From the NCBI RefSeq assembly GCF_964194155.1, contig NC_135886.1, forward strand, positions 2,604,001-2,668,000: a stretch of DNA of 64,000 nt. Direction: 5' to 3'. The stretch comes from Cetorhinus maximus. Taxonomy: Eukaryota. Below the pieces are notes generated by a model. That model had not been told where the DNA came from, did no database searches, and was given only the letters and a program-made list of their open reading frames with translations. Numbering within the stretch: position 1 is the stretch's first letter; each line of letters begins with the position of its first letter. The position numbers were made by a program, and so were the translations under genes. Positions 1 to 34,050 of the stretch are shown piece after piece.

Positions 1-454
1 AGTTGTACAACATACTGGTACAACAAATGAGAAAAAAAAAATCACATGACGGTCCCAATCCAAAACAGTCCTCCCCCACCCCACTCCTCCTTTGGTTTCT
101 GAATGACCCACTACACTTCTGTACTTTTTTCTGATCTTACTAATACTAGAAAATCATTTAAATATTCTGAAGGATCCAAGTGTCCGTTGGCAGAAAAACT
201 GGTCCAATAAAGTCCCAATGTTTCAACATTCAGAGTGTAACGCAGCCTCTTGTCTTACAAGTGGGAGAGGTCTGGAGGGTTATGGACTGGGTGCAGGTCA
301 ATGGGACTAGCGGAATAATATTTCGGCACTGACTAGAAGGGCCAAATGGCCTGTTTTCTGTGCTGTAGTGTTCTATGGTTCTAAGTCCAACTACTTGGAC
401 AACTTGGAATGTTTTTGAAGAGAGAACGACCCACTCCGGTGAAGAATTGTTCGA

Positions 455-9943: not shown

Positions 9944-10715
9944 TTTTTTCCAAAAAATTACTTTATTCATAAAATTTGTAAAGTTACATTACATATTAGT
10001 TCAAGGTTGACAGTACATACAATGCAAAACAGATCCATTTCTTTCCATACAGTATCTGGCACTCCTGAGGTGCCTCATCTTCCGTTACAGATTATGTTTA
10101 CAATATTCATTTCATGTTAAGTATATAGCCCAAGGTTTTCAGCCTCTTAGTGCACCATGGTAGCAGGGCCTTAGACATTGGCCTTTTCCCTGTAAGCCTT
10201 TACAGCAGCTGCCCCCAGCTTTAGTACATCCCTCAGCAAGTTGTCCTGCACCTTCGAATGTGCCAGCCTGCAACACTCAGTCGTGGACAGTTCCTTGCAC
10301 TGGAAGGCCAACAATTTTGAGATAGGCTAAAGAGCATCTTCACCGATTTGATGGTCCTCCAGCAGTAGTTGAAGTTAATCTCGCTGTGCATCCCTGGACA
10401 GTGGAGAGCACACAGCCTTATGTCATGGAGCTGCTCGGGATGAACCTCAGTTAAAAACTACACCCCTCCCCAGACCTGCTTTGCAAAGGCACATCCCAGA
10501 AGGAGATGGGCAACAGTCTCTTCCCTACCGTAGCCGCCTCGAGGGCAGTGCTCGGAGGAGGCGAGACTCTATGCGTGCAGGAAGGCTCTGACTCAGAGGG
10601 AGCTTCTCACCACCAGTCAAGCTGCGTCTTGCTCCTTGTTTGAAAGTTTTGATGATGAGGTGTTCGACCGAGTGACTGATAGTCTGCTCAGGGAGCAGAA
10701 CCTGACAGCTTTCAA
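9944..10715 (-). mobile_element. Old 5'-truncated Tx1 fragment related to the element at 28729-34037
   Basis: The reverse complement ends ttttatgaataaagtaattttttggaaaaaa, like the intact element's tail (tttttatgaataaagtatattttt). 10190-10260 aligns by eye with ORF2 VQDYVLRDALKLGAAAAKA, and about 10680-10695 with PEQTV. Confidence 0.8.
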
Positions 10716-28715: not shown

Positions 28716-28728
28716 GTCTACACTACTG
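28716..28728 (+). repeat. Left target-site duplication GTCTACACTACTG
   Basis: Identical 13-mer at 34038-34050, directly after the poly(A). Confidence 0.97.
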
Positions 28729-28773
28729 ATCGCTTCTCGGCCTTTTGGCTAAGATCAAGTGTAGTATCTGTTC
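28729..28773 (+). ncRNA. RNU2: U2 snRNA 5' fragment (nt 1-45), retrocopied; not a functional U2 gene
   Basis: ATCGCTTCTCGGCCTTTTGGCTAAGATCAAGTGTAGTATCTGTTC is identical to vertebrate U2 nt 1-45 as I recall it. It includes stem-loop I and the branch-point recognition GTAGTA. No Sm site and no recognisable PSE upstream. Confidence 0.93.
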
Positions 28774-28782
28774 AACGGGAAC

Positions 28783-28810
28783 TCTCGGCCTTTTGGCTAA
28801 GATCAAGTGT
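28783..28810 (+). ncRNA. RNU2: Second U2 snRNA fragment (nt 7-34)
   Basis: TCTCGGCCTTTTGGCTAAGATCAAGTGT is an exact 28-nt repeat of 28735-28762. Confidence 0.92.
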
Positions 28811-28825
28811 TGCAGGAGCGACACC

Positions 28826-30388
28826 ATGGTCCTGCCATGGCAAGGTCGGGATGGAAGGGCGAAAACCAATCGCAATCCGAATTCATACCGTGGGTTACCT
28901 ATCACCGTCCGAGTCACGGTGAACCACAGCGACGAAGGAGGATCACCTATGGATCGGGGCTTCTTCACCAGGAGGATCCTGTTGAAGGCGTGCGGCTTCC
29001 AAGCTACGGAGATCTTCACCCTGCACGACTCCCGCAAAGGTGGTTATTTTGACGTGACGTTCAAGCAAGTGGCAGACTGCGTCCGGCTCCTGAGGGTGTT
29101 CGAGGAGAAGAGAGACCTGCCGGAGATGAAGATCCTGACGGCGGAGCCGCACTTTTCTCTGCCGTTGCAACGGGAACGTGAGGTGATGGTGCATGTGTAC
29201 AACCCCTTCGTCCCTGTCGCCGACGTGGTCACCTTCCTCACCAGGTACTTCGATAAGGTGGGGAGCGGCACTGAGATTCGAGACGACTTGGGGATCTGGA
29301 CAGGCAAACGCCTGTTTAAGGTCACGCTAAAGACCGATGGTAAGGGAGCCATTTTCCACCCTCCTTCCAGTTTCGCAATCGGGGGAAACCGTGGCTACCT
29401 GGTCTACGCTGGGCAACCCAAGCATTGTCGCTCATGCGGCAAGGCTGGTCATGTGGCGGCCAACTGCAGCGCCTCCCTCTGCAAGATCTGCAAACAGGAA
29501 GGGCACCAGACAAAAGACTGCAAACAGGCCAAGTGCTGCAACCTGTGTGGCGAGGCAAGTCACCTCTACAGGACCTGCCCCAAACGCTGCCGTACTTACG
29601 CACAGGCAGCCAAAGCCGACCACGGGGAAGCAGAAGAAATGTTCCGTGTCACTCCAACCACCAAGGCCCCCAGGGAGCTCAACGGGACAAAGGAGGACAC
29701 AGAGAGAGACAAGGTGGAGAAAGAGATTGAGGCAACAGAGAGCCAATCAACAGCACTACCCCCTGAACCTTCCAGTCCTCAGGACAGCGAATCAATGGAG
29801 GAGGAGGCAGCAGTGGAAAAGCAGCAGGGGGAGTGGCGGACGGTGAAGAACAAGAAAAGTAAGAGGGTGCGAAGAAGAAGCAAAGGCGTTTCCCAGAGAA
29901 GCGGCAAGAGGCGTCTCCCATCCGACACGGATGACAAGGGCAGCAGCTCTTCGGATGATGAAGTGCCAGAGCGGCACCGACAGAAGAGGCGGCAAAGCTC
30001 CAGGGCGTTGGAGGACGAGACACCCGAGCTCCAGAAAATTGGAGACAACAAGGAGCCCAGCGCACCCCAACTTGGCCTGCAACCTGAGGAGGCCAGTGCA
30101 CCACAGCCCCTGGAATCTGGGAGCAGTGAGGCAATCATCGCACCCCAGCTCCAGGAAGCCGGGAACAGCAACCCCCCAGAGGGGGTGAGTTTTGGAGAAG
30201 CTTCTCCAGCAAAGGTCATCTCAAAATCCGCTCACTACGTGAACCTCCAGATGCCACTGGAGCAGAACACGGCCAAGGAGATCTACCTCAGCCCATCCAA
30301 AGTGAAGGAATTTGAGCTCACTACGGGTATGAAGGAGCAGACTAAAGGTCTGGGACTCTCAGAGACAGTGGGTTTGGTAGGAGAATAA
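28826..30388 (+). CDS. Tx1 ORF1, gag-like protein with three CCHC zinc knuckles (ZCCHC3-like), 520 aa
   Basis: First ATG of the element, in a strong context (acaccATGg). Knuckles CRSCGKAGHVAANC, CKICKQEGHQTKDC, CNLCGEASHLYRTC; basic NLS-like stretch KNKKSKRVRRRSK. Confidence 0.9.
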   Translation: MVLPWQGRDGRAKTNRNPNSYRGLPITVRVTVNHSDEGGSPMDRGFFTRRILLKACGFQATEIFTLHDSRKGGYFDVTFKQVADCVRLLRVFEEKRDLPEMKILTAEPHFSLPLQREREVMVHVYNPFVPVADVVTFLTRYFDKVGSGTEIRDDLGIWTGKRLFKVTLKTDGKGAIFHPPSSFAIGGNRGYLVYAGQPKHCRSCGKAGHVAANCSASLCKICKQEGHQTKDCKQAKCCNLCGEASHLYRTCPKRCRTYAQAAKADHGEAEEMFRVTPTTKAPRELNGTKEDTERDKVEKEIEATESQSTALPPEPSSPQDSESMEEEAAVEKQQGEWRTVKNKKSKRVRRRSKGVSQRSGKRRLPSDTDDKGSSSSDDEVPERHRQKRRQSSRALEDETPELQKIGDNKEPSAPQLGLQPEEASAPQPLESGSSEAIIAPQLQEAGNSNPPEGVSFGEASPAKVISKSAHYVNLQMPLEQNTAKEIYLSPSKVKEFELTTGMKEQTKGLGLSETVGLVGE

Positions 30389-30398
30389 ATGCTTTAAT

Positions 30399-33300
30399 AT
30401 GGGTTTAAAGATTGTATCCATAAATGTGCGTAGCATTAAATCTACTACGCGATGTGTTGCGACCTTGGACTACCTAGCCAAGGTCAAAGCTGACCTGTTG
30501 TTTCTGCAGGAGTGTGCGATACCGCACCTCAGCTCCTACAGGCAATGGTCACGATGGTGGTCCCACGGGCCATCGATCTGGTCGGGCGGAAACGACTCTC
30601 GTTCCTCCGGCCTGGGTATTCTGCTGCGGGGAGGCAACTTCACCGTCTCCGAGGTCAAGGAGGTGGTGGGCGGGCGACTCCTGGTAGCAGACGTAATGTA
30701 CAAGAACGCTCCACTCCGGTTAATTAACGTGTACGGCCCGGCACAAGGGGCTGAGCGGCTGGAGGTTTTTCAGCAGCTCCCACTGCTGCTGGCGACCTCC
30801 AGGCCGGTCATTCTGGGCGGGGACTTCAACTGCATCATCGATGCGGCTGGACGATCCGGCAGGGCCGGAAGCAGATTGGACGCTACGTCCAGATCCCTGA
30901 TGGAAACAGTTAAGGATGCCAAGCTGCACGACGTCTTCAGCAACCCTGCAGACGGAGCGCAGCGTAGATACACCTGGTCGCGGCCAGACGGGTCCATTCG
31001 TTCCAGGATAGACTTCCTGTTTGTGTCCCGTGCATTCACAGTCAGATCCACCGAAGTCAAGCCGGTGTTCTTCTCTGACCACTGCCTCCTACTGGCGGAC
31101 TGCCACTTGGAGGAAGACCTGAGGGTGGGCAGGGGGGCATGGAAGCTAAATGTGCAACTGCTGACCCCAGAGAACATTGAGGAGCTCAAGAGGGATTACA
31201 AAGGTTGGAGAACCGTGAAACCCCTCTTTGAGTCCCTGACACACTGGTGGGAAGTGATCAAGGGAAGCATCAAGAGGTTTTTCATCCTCAAAGGCACCCA
31301 GAAAGCTAGAAAGGAACAGAGGGAAATGCCCCGACTCCAGGAAAAGATGCAGAATCTGCTCCGGCTGCAGTCGATGGGGGTCGATGTCAAGGAGGAGCTC
31401 CAAGAGGTGAAGGGCCAGCAAGCCTCGCACTTTGCCTCGGAGGCCTCCAAGATCATCTTCCGTTCCAGAGTCCGCTCCGTGGAGCAGGATGAGACGTGCT
31501 CACGTTTCTTCTTCCAAAAGGTACACAGAGAGCGCTCTGTGATCAGCAGCCTGAAGGAAGAAGACGGCTCAGTAAAGTCATCACGGTCCGACATTCTGAG
31601 GATCAGCAAATCCTTTTATGCCGGACTGTATGACGTGAAGCCCACGGACAGCACGGCCTCCCAGTCCTTCCTGTCCTCTATCACGGAGGTCCTAGACCAC
31701 AGTACGCGGGAGAGCCTAGACAAACCGCTAACTCCTGACGAACTGACTAAGGCCCTCGAGTCCTTCGAGAAGAGTAAAACCCCCGGAAGCGACGGCCTGC
31801 CGGCGGAGTTGTATTCGGCTCTGTGGGACTTGATCGGCCCAGACCTGCTAGAAGTGTACGAGAGTATGCTCCTGGCCGGCAGCATGTCAGAATCCATGAG
31901 GAAAGGCATCATCACCCTCATCTACAAGCACAAGGGGGAAAGGGAGGAAATTAGAAATTGGCGACCCATTTCACTGTTGAATATGGACTATAAGATTCTG
32001 TCCAAGGTCATCGCCAACCGGGTCAAATCCGCTCTGGAATTGGTGATTCACCCTGACCAGACCTGCTCTGTGCCAGGCAGGAAGATCTCTGACAGCCTGG
32101 CGCTGCTCAGGGATACGATTGCCTATGTACAGGACAGGGGTGTGGATACCTGCCTCATCAGCTTGGATCAGGAGAAGGCCTTTGACAGAATATCGCACAC
32201 CTACATGGGGGATGTGCTCTCCAAAATGGGCTTTGGGGAGGGAATTCGAAATTGGATCCAACTGCTCTACACTAACATCAGTAGTGCAGTCTCAATCAAT
32301 GGGTGGGAAACAGATAGCTTTCCGATTAAATCTGGAGTCAGGCAGGGCTGCCCTCTCTCGCCTGTCCTTTTTGTGTGCTGCATAGAACCCTTTGCCGAGT
32401 CCATCAGGAAGGATCCGGGCATAAGAGGAGTGACGATCCCAGGCAGTGGAGGCACTCAGGTAAAAGCCTCCCTGTACATGGACGACGTCGCCGTCTTCTG
32501 CTCGGATCCGCTGTCGGTGCGCAGACTGATGCACGTCTGCGACCAGTTCGAACTGGCCTCGGGAGCCAAGGTAAATCGTGGGAAGAGCGAGGCCATGTTC
32601 TTTGGGAACTGGGCTGACCGATCCTTTGTCCCCTTCACTGTCAGGGCTGACGGCCTGAAGGTGCTGGGGATATGGTTCGGAGGGACCGGGGCATGCGTTA
32701 GAAACTGGAAGGAGCGAGTGGCTATGGTGAAAGGGAAACTGGGCATGTGGGAGCGACGCTCCCTCTCCATTGCGGGTAAGAACCTGGTCATCAGGTGTGA
32801 GGTACTCTCGCTGTTGCTGTACGTGGCGCAGGTCTGGCCCATTCCACACTCCTGCGCGATGGCGATCACTCGAGCCATCTTCCGCTTTATCTGGAGGTCG
32901 AAAATGGATCGTGTCTGCAGGGACGCGATGTACAAGCCTCTAGATAAAGGGGGAAAAAACGTGCCCAACATCGCCCTCATACTGATGGCCACCTTTGTGT
33001 GCGGCTGCATCAAGCGGTGCGTAGACCCTCAGTACGCAAACACCAAGTGTCACTACGTGCTGAGGTTCTACCTGTCCCCGGTGTTGCGAAGGATGGGTCT
33101 GGCCACGCTGCCGCGGAACGCTCCAAGTAGTTGGACCGTGCCGTACCACCTGTCCCTGGTGGAAAAATTTATGCAGAAAAACACCTTTGACCACAAGTCC
33201 ATCAGGCAGTGGTCAGCACGTAACGTCCTAGAGGCCCTGAGGGATAAGGAGAGGGTGGACCCTGTGGGATGGTTCCCCGAGCAGACTGTCAAAGTCATTT

Positions 33301-33806
33301 GGCAGAATGCCTCATCGCCAGAACTTTCCAACAAGCACCAAGACGTAGCTTGGCTGGTGGTGAGAAAGGCCCTCCCCGTCAGATCCTTCCTACACGCCAG
33401 GAGTCTCACCCCCTCTGCACGATGCCCTCGAGGTGGCTGTGGTGGGGAAGAGACCGTTGTTCACCTCCTTGTGGATTGTGCCTTTGCAAAGAAAGTCTGG
33501 AGAGAGATGCAGTGGTTGCTGTCGAGGTTCATCCCGAGCAGTTCTGTGACACAGGACTCTGTGCTCTACGGGCTGTTCCCAGGGACACACACCGAGACAA
33601 ACATCAACTGCAGCTGGAGGATCATCAACTCGGTGAAAGTCGCGCTTTGGTCTGCCCGAAACTTGTTGGTCTTCCAGCACAAAGAGTTGTCCCCGACCGA
33701 TTGTTGCGGACTGGCACAATCCAAAGTCCAGGACTACGTGCTGAGGGACGCACTAAAGCTTGGGGCAGCTGCCGCAAAGGCGCAATGGGGAAGGGTCGCT
33801 GTCTAA
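30399..33806 (+). CDS. Tx1 ORF2, APE endonuclease + reverse transcriptase + C-terminal zinc finger, 1135 aa
   Basis: APE motifs SINVRS, FLQE, GGDFN, RIDF, SDH. RT motifs KTPGSDG, WRPISLLN, DQEKAFD, GVRQGCPLSP, YMDD. C-terminal CPRGGC..EETVVHLLVDC. Confidence 0.97.
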   Translation: MGLKIVSINVRSIKSTTRCVATLDYLAKVKADLLFLQECAIPHLSSYRQWSRWWSHGPSIWSGGNDSRSSGLGILLRGGNFTVSEVKEVVGGRLLVADVMYKNAPLRLINVYGPAQGAERLEVFQQLPLLLATSRPVILGGDFNCIIDAAGRSGRAGSRLDATSRSLMETVKDAKLHDVFSNPADGAQRRYTWSRPDGSIRSRIDFLFVSRAFTVRSTEVKPVFFSDHCLLLADCHLEEDLRVGRGAWKLNVQLLTPENIEELKRDYKGWRTVKPLFESLTHWWEVIKGSIKRFFILKGTQKARKEQREMPRLQEKMQNLLRLQSMGVDVKEELQEVKGQQASHFASEASKIIFRSRVRSVEQDETCSRFFFQKVHRERSVISSLKEEDGSVKSSRSDILRISKSFYAGLYDVKPTDSTASQSFLSSITEVLDHSTRESLDKPLTPDELTKALESFEKSKTPGSDGLPAELYSALWDLIGPDLLEVYESMLLAGSMSESMRKGIITLIYKHKGEREEIRNWRPISLLNMDYKILSKVIANRVKSALELVIHPDQTCSVPGRKISDSLALLRDTIAYVQDRGVDTCLISLDQEKAFDRISHTYMGDVLSKMGFGEGIRNWIQLLYTNISSAVSINGWETDSFPIKSGVRQGCPLSPVLFVCCIEPFAESIRKDPGIRGVTIPGSGGTQVKASLYMDDVAVFCSDPLSVRRLMHVCDQFELASGAKVNRGKSEAMFFGNWADRSFVPFTVRADGLKVLGIWFGGTGACVRNWKERVAMVKGKLGMWERRSLSIAGKNLVIRCEVLSLLLYVAQVWPIPHSCAMAITRAIFRFIWRSKMDRVCRDAMYKPLDKGGKNVPNIALILMATFVCGCIKRCVDPQYANTKCHYVLRFYLSPVLRRMGLATLPRNAPSSWTVPYHLSLVEKFMQKNTFDHKSIRQWSARNVLEALRDKERVDPVGWFPEQTVKVIWQNASSPELSNKHQDVAWLVVRKALPVRSFLHARSLTPSARCPRGGCGGEETVVHLLVDCAFAKKVWREMQWLLSRFIPSSSVTQDSVLYGLFPGTHTETNINCSWRIINSVKVALWSARNLLVFQHKELSPTDCCGLAQSKVQDYVLRDALKLGAAAAKAQWGRVAV

Positions 33807-34037
33807 GACCTTTCTACCACAGCGCACCGAGAGACTGGGAACTGTTTAGAGCCCCTCGGGCTGTACAGATCAAAATGAAAGGCTGTAAATGACTGTAATA
33901 TTGTTTGTACTGATGCACCTGGTGATACATTTTGTAAAAGTTTAACCTGGATTGTACCCTTGTAATGTTGTTTTTGAAATGGTTTTGAATGTGATTGAAG
34001 ATTTTTATGAATAAAGTATATTTTTACAAAAAAAAAA

Positions 34038-34050
34038 GTCTACACTACTG
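34038..34050 (+). repeat. Right target-site duplication GTCTACACTACTG
   Basis: Identical to 28716-28728. Confidence 0.97.

Follow-up and report, generated by a model that had tools for sequence, protein, structure and literature searches.

A young Tx1-type LINE of Cetorhinus maximus with a fixed U2 snRNA head and probable sources in U2 genes

Introduction

The stretch of 64,000 nucleotides analyzed here (Cetorhinus maximus, contig NC_135886.1, positions 2,604,001 to 2,668,000; hereafter the window) contains a retrotransposon that begins with two pieces of U2 snRNA but lies outside a U2 gene. How is such an element transcribed? For snRNA-headed retroposons, this question was left open in PMC4494074 because snRNA promoters lie outside the RNA. 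The family to which the window copy belongs is young and intact and features promoter-fused copies as well as traceable offspring, which renders the question directly testable. Keno, the U2-headed Tx1 elements of crocodilians, and the analogous annealing of R2 are already published. The literature search returned no account of promoter use by Keno or of a U2-headed Tx1 in sharks; subscription papers, Repbase, or supplements may hold one.

Structure of the element

The region 28716..34050 of the window holds a copy of a Tx1-type LINE that is both intact and very young. The element is 5.3 kb long, carries two ORFs on the forward strand, and is bounded by two identical 13-bp target-site duplications (TSDs; 28716..28728 and 34038..34050). 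The left TSD is followed by an outer, one-off piece of U2 snRNA, nt 1–45 (28729..28773, forward strand), which is matched by the Rfam U2 model with 56.7 bits (gathering threshold 46, E 2.5e-9). A 9-nt linker (28774..28782) separates it from the inner piece—here U2 nt 7–34 (28783..28810), a 28-nt exact repeat and the fixed head of the family. The linker and the base preceding it match the element's own ORF1 at 29168–29177, with a chance of about 0.012. A 15-nt leader (28811..28825) ends at the ATG of ORF1. ORF1 (28826..30388; 520 aa) is open and features two ZCCHC3-type RNA-binding domains and a zinc knuckle; ORF2 (30399..33806; 1135 aa) is open and features an AP-type endonuclease, a reverse transcriptase, and a zf-RVT domain (Exo_endo_phos, E 1.5e-16; RVT_1, E 2.1e-37). 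Besides the AP-type domain at the N-terminus of ORF2, the Pfam search found no nuclease family. The 3′ UTR (33807..34027) contains AATAAA at 34010–34015 and is followed by a poly(A) tail of ten residues (34028..34037). The order of parts given in the preliminary description, from the TSD through U2 1–45, the 9-nt linker, U2 7–34, and two ORFs to A10, is confirmed by the sequence, its repeats, and Rfam. The window copy also bears four amino-acid changes that are rare or absent in other intact copies.

The flanks had been described as not belonging to a U2 gene, and this is borne out: when the U2 gene, the 400 nt upstream of it (from two types of gene), and the flank 3′ of it were searched by BLAST against the whole window, neither a promoter nor a U2 remainder was detected close to the element. 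Contigs from another sample (runs X2 and X3) match the right flank exactly from 34038 and extend 670 and 684 letters beyond the flank match, off the element tail; this read check of the right-flank side is consistent with an empty allele.

The family and its fixed head

Intact starts of the family number 932 in the genome and tails 3,589, at an identity of about 99.5%. All 86 dispersed starts sampled (contigs C1–C3) carry the fixed U2 head, which joins the body at nt 34 in 60 starts and at nt 37, the very point of insertion, in 26. The expectation that copies start at U2 +1 holds only in part: the head is universal in the sample, yet only 33 of the 86 starts begin precisely at +1 (59 within nt 1–5). 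Likewise, the nt-45 junction expected in all copies occurs once in the genome, in the window. The inner copy is hence the family head, and the failure of this junction test for the outer piece does not refute the idea of a borrowed promoter.

Just one of the 86 starts shows extended identity to what precedes +1 in U2 genes: L188 carries, inside its 11-bp TSD, 13 nt equal to positions −13..−1 of type-B U2 genes. The base before +1 is G in 16 of the 33 +1 starts versus 14 of the 53 others (p 0.06), and G or C in 27 of 33 versus 25 of 53 (p 0.0015). A G copied from the cap at +1 starts is only hinted at by these counts, as many such bases fall within the TSD.

Both ORFs are kept in 71 of 89 dispersed full-length copies, a set that includes the window and eight chosen double heads. 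Young copies are mosaics: by the four-gamete criterion, 387 of 561 site pairs are incompatible in a set of 29 such copies from dispersed sites. Alleles common to at least three young dispersed copies are also present among 39 U2-cluster copies in 33 of 37 cases—a sharing that carries no direction. Older dispersed copies differ at 40–100 positions from any sampled U2-cluster copy.

U2 genes as target and candidate sources

At U2 genes, the tail is joined to U2 nt 38; the insertion lies at the Keno site (U2 37/38). Copies with U2 upstream sequence in front and the U2 remainder behind, which the preliminary description had proposed to look for, do exist: at least eight, among the 40 matches scored rather than as a genome-wide total, consist of U2 upstream sequence, U2(1–34/37), and body, with the tail on U2 nt 38. 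Both ORFs are open in 8/8. The fused upstream sequence is a putative promoter, going by its position ahead of whole U2 genes.

The 25 type-B U2 genes divide into 12 intact genes, eight with truncated or other insertions, in which U2 38–42..53 is duplicated, and five fused copies, which may represent as few as two events. Nucleotide 16 is T in 20/20 nonfused type-B genes and C in 5/5 fused copies, a comparison biased by the search query, which itself carried C; C at this position is a common variant of element heads. In addition, head-34 fusions lack U2 nt 35–37. Together, the C at nt 16 and the missing nucleotides suggest that the cDNA head took over from the host's own.

Junctions of poly(A) with U2(38–47) number 961 in the genome, 890 on contig C29 and later contigs and 71 on C1–C28. 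Where the U2 target is duplicated, the duplication stops at nt 46–58 in 21 of 23 junctions, and one array unit features a double-headed copy with U2 38–55 on both sides, i.e., a plain TSD. Genome-wide, the family also enters sites of loose similarity; around the cut, dispersed sites show only weak likeness. Some dispersed targets recur.

U2-locus pieces in dispersed copies

Twenty junctions were sampled from the 71 on C1–C28: 14 are poly(A)–U2(38–49..58)–element composites, and six are chance matches. TSDs flank the entire composite in L263 (6 bp, weak), L266, L267, L276, L280, L193, and L260; the composite of L260 comprises U2 38–191 plus 57 nt of gene flank. In an unbiased set of 79 full-length copies whose 3′ end could be read, five are composites. 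Seven dispersed stacks have linkers that do not derive from U2; in five of them, this linker is the local TSD, and derivation from another dispersed locus was shown for 0/7. L276 and L279 have one junction in common, for which the assembly contains no source; L276 could thus descend from L279, which is dispersed and full-length.

Origin of the outer U2 piece

The doubled U2 had been taken to argue against a one-off event; yet the outer piece is one-off, and double heads account for two of the 86 sampled starts, each with its own junction. In 12 dispersed double heads, the outer piece stops at U2 nt 36–57 (at 45–57 in eight of them), never beyond. For the window, the somewhat likelier origin is that the outer U2 1–45 represents the target duplication (nt 38–45) of a lost, almost complete copy that had inserted into a U2 gene and would have been transcribed from +1, and this origin is ranked above a template switch onto U2 RNA.

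Such a switch—in which the reverse transcriptase, while inserting the window copy, would have jumped to U2 snRNA or to a different RNA with a U2 head—is a possible, though less probable, origin. Template jumping clearly occurs in the family, since L151 carries a U1 piece between two U2 pieces and L092 an added U2 13–37; multiple 5′ additions are described in PMC4494074, and the 5′ extensions of SINEU-2 were proposed to form likewise. A jump also agrees with the uniqueness of the window junction: the sole match to the 45–linker–7 junction in the assembly is the window itself, every double head is a singleton, and 0/8 promoter-fused copies are double-headed. However, the outer ends at nt 36–57 of a 188-nt RNA overlap the range of target duplications, the array unit bears U2 38–55 on either side of its double-headed copy, and an element-templated linker requires two jumps.

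Transcription from U2 promoters

The fixed head, the U2 target site, the promoter-fused intact copies, and the U2-locus pieces inside dispersed TSDs are established. The best explanation, which we consider probable, is that copies fused to U2 promoters are the sources of the family, that the head serves as a 5′ homology arm by which sources are rebuilt, and that dispersed copies are mostly sinks. Transcription from U2 +1 would yield an RNA consisting of U2(1–34/37), leader, ORF1, ORF2, and poly(A). At a U2 gene, the cDNA head would pair with host nt 1–37 and produce a seamless promoter–head–body copy, i.e., a new source. If, instead, the partner is the head of a copy that already sits downstream, the U2 remainder would be doubled and a whole U2 gene placed in front, leading to tandem arrays. 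Elsewhere, joining by microhomology would leave a TSD of 7–20 bp and a copy without a U2 promoter. Through the fused copies, U2 gene promoters likely drive transcription of the family, and dispersed copies would mostly be promoterless sinks.

The leader of only 15 nt counts in favor of the U2-promoter reading, as does the same annealing logic in R2 (PMC3774820). Counted against it are the 71/89 intact dispersed copies, which could be active if transcribed; the lack of a parent copy in the assembly for the window and L276/L279 junctions; and template jumping, the query bias at nt 16, and the possibly small number of events behind the five fused copies. The promoter-borrowing model of the preliminary description is upheld by the U2-fused copies and by the U2-locus pieces in dispersed TSDs, but its details are reversed, as the inner copy is the family head. 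Its opposition of a permanently captured head to promoter borrowing dissolves: the two are not alternatives, and both hold.

It is unlikely that the head was captured once and that transcription starts at its first base under a promoter of the element's own (within the head, leader, or ORF1), with dispersed copies also acting as sources and U2-resident ones being a minority. The fixed head, the intactness of most dispersed full-length copies, the potential parenthood of L279, and the distance of old dispersed copies from sampled cluster copies speak for it. That distance is, however, expected as well if cluster copies turn over; all transductions of identifiable origin trace to a U2 locus; L188 carries U2 upstream sequence; the leader is short; and, according to PMC4494074, snRNA genes have no reported internal promoter. 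A reading in which every head arose by its own switch to U2 RNA as template, so that the head is not fixed and is unconnected to U2 promoters, would suit the variable outer pieces but is extremely improbable and is refuted by the two fixed junctions, one at the insertion site, that cover 86/86 starts.

If the U2-promoter reading is true, an AP-endonuclease LINE would join its copies by homology, as R2 does, but at an snRNA gene transcribed by Pol II. This would explain the persistence of Keno-like elements in a small gene family and offer a path by which a Keno that targets U2 could give rise to the crocodilian Tx1 and SINEU families, which bear heads and have other targets. A closed source cycle in the U2 clusters has slightly better than even chances: expression would come only from hijacked snRNA promoters, the head would be start site and homology arm in one, thousands of silent copies would be shed, and a full-length hit in U2 would either create a new source or restore a complete U2 gene in front of an array that is being extended. 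Such a cycle would represent, in living form, the stage that preceded snRNA-headed LINEs and SINEU.

Comparison with known systems

Keno is a Tx1-clade LINE that targets U2 snRNA genes, as cited in the available parts of PMC4494074, PMC4640811, and PMC6136364, the last of which gives U2 nt 38 as its 3′ target. The window element resembles it in combining an AP-type endonuclease with a reverse transcriptase, and the family's tail is joined to the same nucleotide. In contrast to Keno, only about a quarter of the family tails lie at the U2 site (961 junctions versus 3,589 tails), the U2 5′ piece moves with the element as a fixed head, and promoter-fused sources and U2-restoring arrays are absent from the Keno accounts in those parts of the three papers. 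Because of these tail counts and the weak likeness of dispersed sites, the family is called Keno-type and not Keno proper.

The crocodilian Tx1-Mar elements include Tx1-11_Crp with a U2 head and Tx1-2_Crp and Tx1-4_AMi with a U1 head, and prefer Mariner-N4-like DNA transposons as targets (PMC4494074). These headed Tx1 LINEs cluster with Keno, snRNA pieces were added repeatedly at their 5′ end, and transcription from an upstream promoter was suggested (PMC4494074). They are, however, old (85–87% to consensus) and Mariner-targeting (PMC4494074), whereas the family described here is nearly uniform at about 99.5%, still enters U2 genes, and has candidate sources. SINEU shares the snRNA-derived head but is short and noncoding, unlike the 5.3-kb element with its two ORFs.

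R2 in 28S rDNA is co-transcribed from its host gene, and target sequence on the 5′ end of its RNA anneals to the target and yields uniform 5′ junctions (PMC3774820). R2 differs by its restriction-like endonuclease, Pol I transcription, ribozyme-made 5′ end, and confinement to rDNA; the 5′ end of the window family would be an snRNA start site, and most copies lie elsewhere. Utopia uses the same U2 site, with a specificity weakened in reptiles, and forms arrays in Phytophthora with whole U2 genes upstream of insertions (PMC4640811), but it features a restriction-like endonuclease and one ORF instead of the AP-type domain and two ORFs (PMC4640811). Among the protein-similarity matches to the element, none is a Keno-named sequence; the reverse transcriptase region is 46% identical, as a similarity only, to a protein from zebrafish that bears the name transposon TX1 149 kDa protein.

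Structure of the window element

The Tx1-like LINE copy of the window is entirely enclosed by a 13-bp target-site duplication (TSD; 28716–28728 and 34038–34050). Within it follow U2 nt 1–45, a 9-nt linker, U2 nt 7–34, a 15-nt leader, ORF1, ORF2, AATAAA, and A10. ORF1 encodes 520 aa with ZCCHC3-type RNA-binding domains and a zinc knuckle; ORF2 encodes 1135 aa with an AP-type endonuclease, RT, and zf-RVT. All features listed for the element in the preliminary description were recovered at their positions, and the observation is real. Its flanks are indeed not a U2 gene: neither U2 upstream sequence nor the U2 remainder was found near the element in a search of the window. Past 34038, contigs from one other sample run on for 670–684 letters with no match to the tail, the pattern expected of an empty allele. 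In a protein search, pieces of the element are 71–79% identical in shark proteins, which makes a cartilaginous-fish host likely. An old fragment of a related element (76% identical) lies at 10140–10694 on the minus strand.

The fixed U2 head

In the 4.0-Gb genome assembly, exact-pattern matches amount to 932 intact ORF1 starts and 3,589 family tails, and the 3′ ends are approximately 99.5% identical. The head sample comprised 80 stretches with 86 starts, drawn from the 100 places listed first out of 932 (contigs C1–C3). Every sampled start is headed by U2 sequence, and only two junctions occur: nt 34 in 60 starts and nt 37 in 26. Of the 86, 33 begin at U2 +1 and 59 within nt 1–5; in 2, another U2 piece precedes the head. 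An nt-45 junction shared across full-length copies had been named as a test, but the outer junction of the window copy occurs nowhere else in the assembly. Because all sampled starts use the two junctions, few are double, and the outer junction is unique, the inner U2 copy is the fixed family head and the outer one an accident of the window copy's lineage. The mechanism proposed earlier, with master copies in U2 genes driven by the U2 promoter and promoterless dispersed copies, remains for the most part the probable one; the assignment of the head moves from the outer to the inner copy. Dispersed copies have TSDs of 7–20 bp (the 55 copies yielding one), and their target sites weakly resemble the U2 site around the cut.

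Insertions in U2 genes and promoter-fused copies

A survey with U2 upstream sequence as query scored 40 of 977 candidates. Type B is one of two kinds of U2 gene told apart by upstream sequence. Of 25 type-B genes, twelve are whole (one at 190.5 bits), eight are interrupted by a short repeat or by 5′-truncated element copies, with U2 duplicated from nt 38 to nt 42–53, and five consist of upstream sequence, U2(1–34/37), and a full element. Type-A upstream sequence precedes three further fused copies. In all eight, the tail joins U2 nt 38 and both ORFs are kept, bearing out the expectation of copies behind U2 upstream sequence. The nt 37/38 site is the reported Keno target (PMC6136364). Poly(A)–U2(38–47) junctions number 961 genome-wide, 71 on C1–C28 and 890 on later contigs.

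The 5′ side of fused copies has no TSD, and U2 nt 16 is C in fused type-B copies versus T in 20/20 other type-B genes—a contrast biased by a search query carrying C, and with five fused type-B copies that may be two events. Both features fit a replacement of the host's first 34–37 nt by the cDNA head, which would be joined by homology. For R2, a comparable 5′ replacement by RNA-derived target sequence, with joining by homology, has been postulated (PMC3774820). The fused copies would use the U2 promoter. Among the papers listed in literature searches, no account of promoter-fused sources came up.

A repeat of approximately 200 nt, probably a SINE and likely mobilized by this LINE, shares this U2 site and also neighbors copies of the element (L096, L136, L138, L190, and L277); in one instance it follows a short U2 head.

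Tandem arrays in U2 clusters

The arrays (C29, C30, and small contigs; stretches L061–L080 and L111–L130) feature U2 upstream sequence, a whole U2 gene, and a 104-nt flank, followed by repeat units. Each unit, located behind whole U2 genes, consists of head, element, poly(A), U2(38–191), and flank. The flank end occurs in 415 copies; in 7 stretches, the final unit closes with the U2 remainder and flank, and no further head follows. Adjacent units differ at 14–52 sites, mainly shared polymorphisms, with the first difference at a median of 231 (12 pairs) versus 27 for random pairs. The shared 5′ part fits joining to the head of the downstream copy; gene conversion or unequal crossing-over would also produce this likeness.

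In a second array type (L132–L136; C29:2377162–2400506 and small contigs), approximately 2.3 kb separates U2 from the headed element, with a period of approximately 7.65 kb. The arrays also contain an amplified variant in which head nt 1–26 is joined to body position 1494, so that most of ORF1 is missing (L070–L079, L111, and L140). A sister copy (94% identical; L128:3689–3719, minus strand) has a 5′ start resembling the U1 rather than the U2 5′ end, with a weak Rfam U1 match (E 0.78).

Flow from U2 loci to dispersed sites

From the 71 junctions on C1–C28, 20 were sampled: 14 run on as U2 from nt 38 to nt 49–58 and then further element (3 of them older relatives), and 6 are chance matches. In seven composites, a single TSD surrounds the entire structure; one of them, L260, contains U2 38–191 plus 57 nt of gene flank and lies remote from every U2 cluster. 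The RNAs behind these composites must come from U2 loci. The composite type accounts for 5 of 79 unbiased full-length copies. L188 contains 13 nt of type-B upstream sequence within its TSD.

Dispersed copies would mostly act as sinks. A local TSD accounts for five of seven stacks with non-U2 linkers; this small sample showed no transduction of flanking sequence out of a dispersed copy. Since the assembly contains no U2-resident source of the junction common to L276 and L279, L276 could descend from L279. The young dispersed copies form mosaics; of the 37 alleles they share, 33 also occur in a pool of 39 cluster copies, a sharing that gives no direction. A recurrent dispersed target word lies in an abundant repeat (L191, L208, L211, L215, L228, L233, L237, L249, and L256), where repeated hits form stacks with a local TSD between copies.

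Relation to known systems

Crocodilian Tx1 families near Keno with U2 or U1 heads and repeated 5′ snRNA additions are already reported; their transcription is left open there and upstream promoters are suggested (PMC4494074). Utopia, with relaxed specificity in reptiles, shares with the shark element the U2 site and whole U2 genes ahead of insertions (PMC4640811). The nt 37/38 target is common to Keno and the shark element, but the latter lacks strict U2 specificity and is therefore kept apart from Keno proper; it is Keno-type in action, a class based on action rather than on a tree with named Keno.

Origin of the outer U2 piece

Dispersed double heads (n = 12) have an outer piece ending at U2 nt 36–57, in 8 of 12 at 45–57, and U2-target duplications end at nt 46–58 in 21 of 23 junctions. 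In one array type, U2 38–55 flanks a double-headed copy on both sides. The 9-nt linker of the window copy matches ORF1 of the same element, a trace that a failed first join might leave. Together, these features tip the balance toward an earlier U2-gene insertion with a TSD of 38–45, transcribed from +1 and then copied to the window. Alternatively, a template jump may have added the outer piece: other copies show jumps of this kind, to U1 as well as U2 pieces, none of the eight fused copies is double-headed, and the assembly holds no U2-resident source carrying the window's outer junction. In the head of the dispersed copy L151, a U1 stem-loop piece (372–404; model nt 16–48, E 0.0023) is sandwiched by two U2 pieces.
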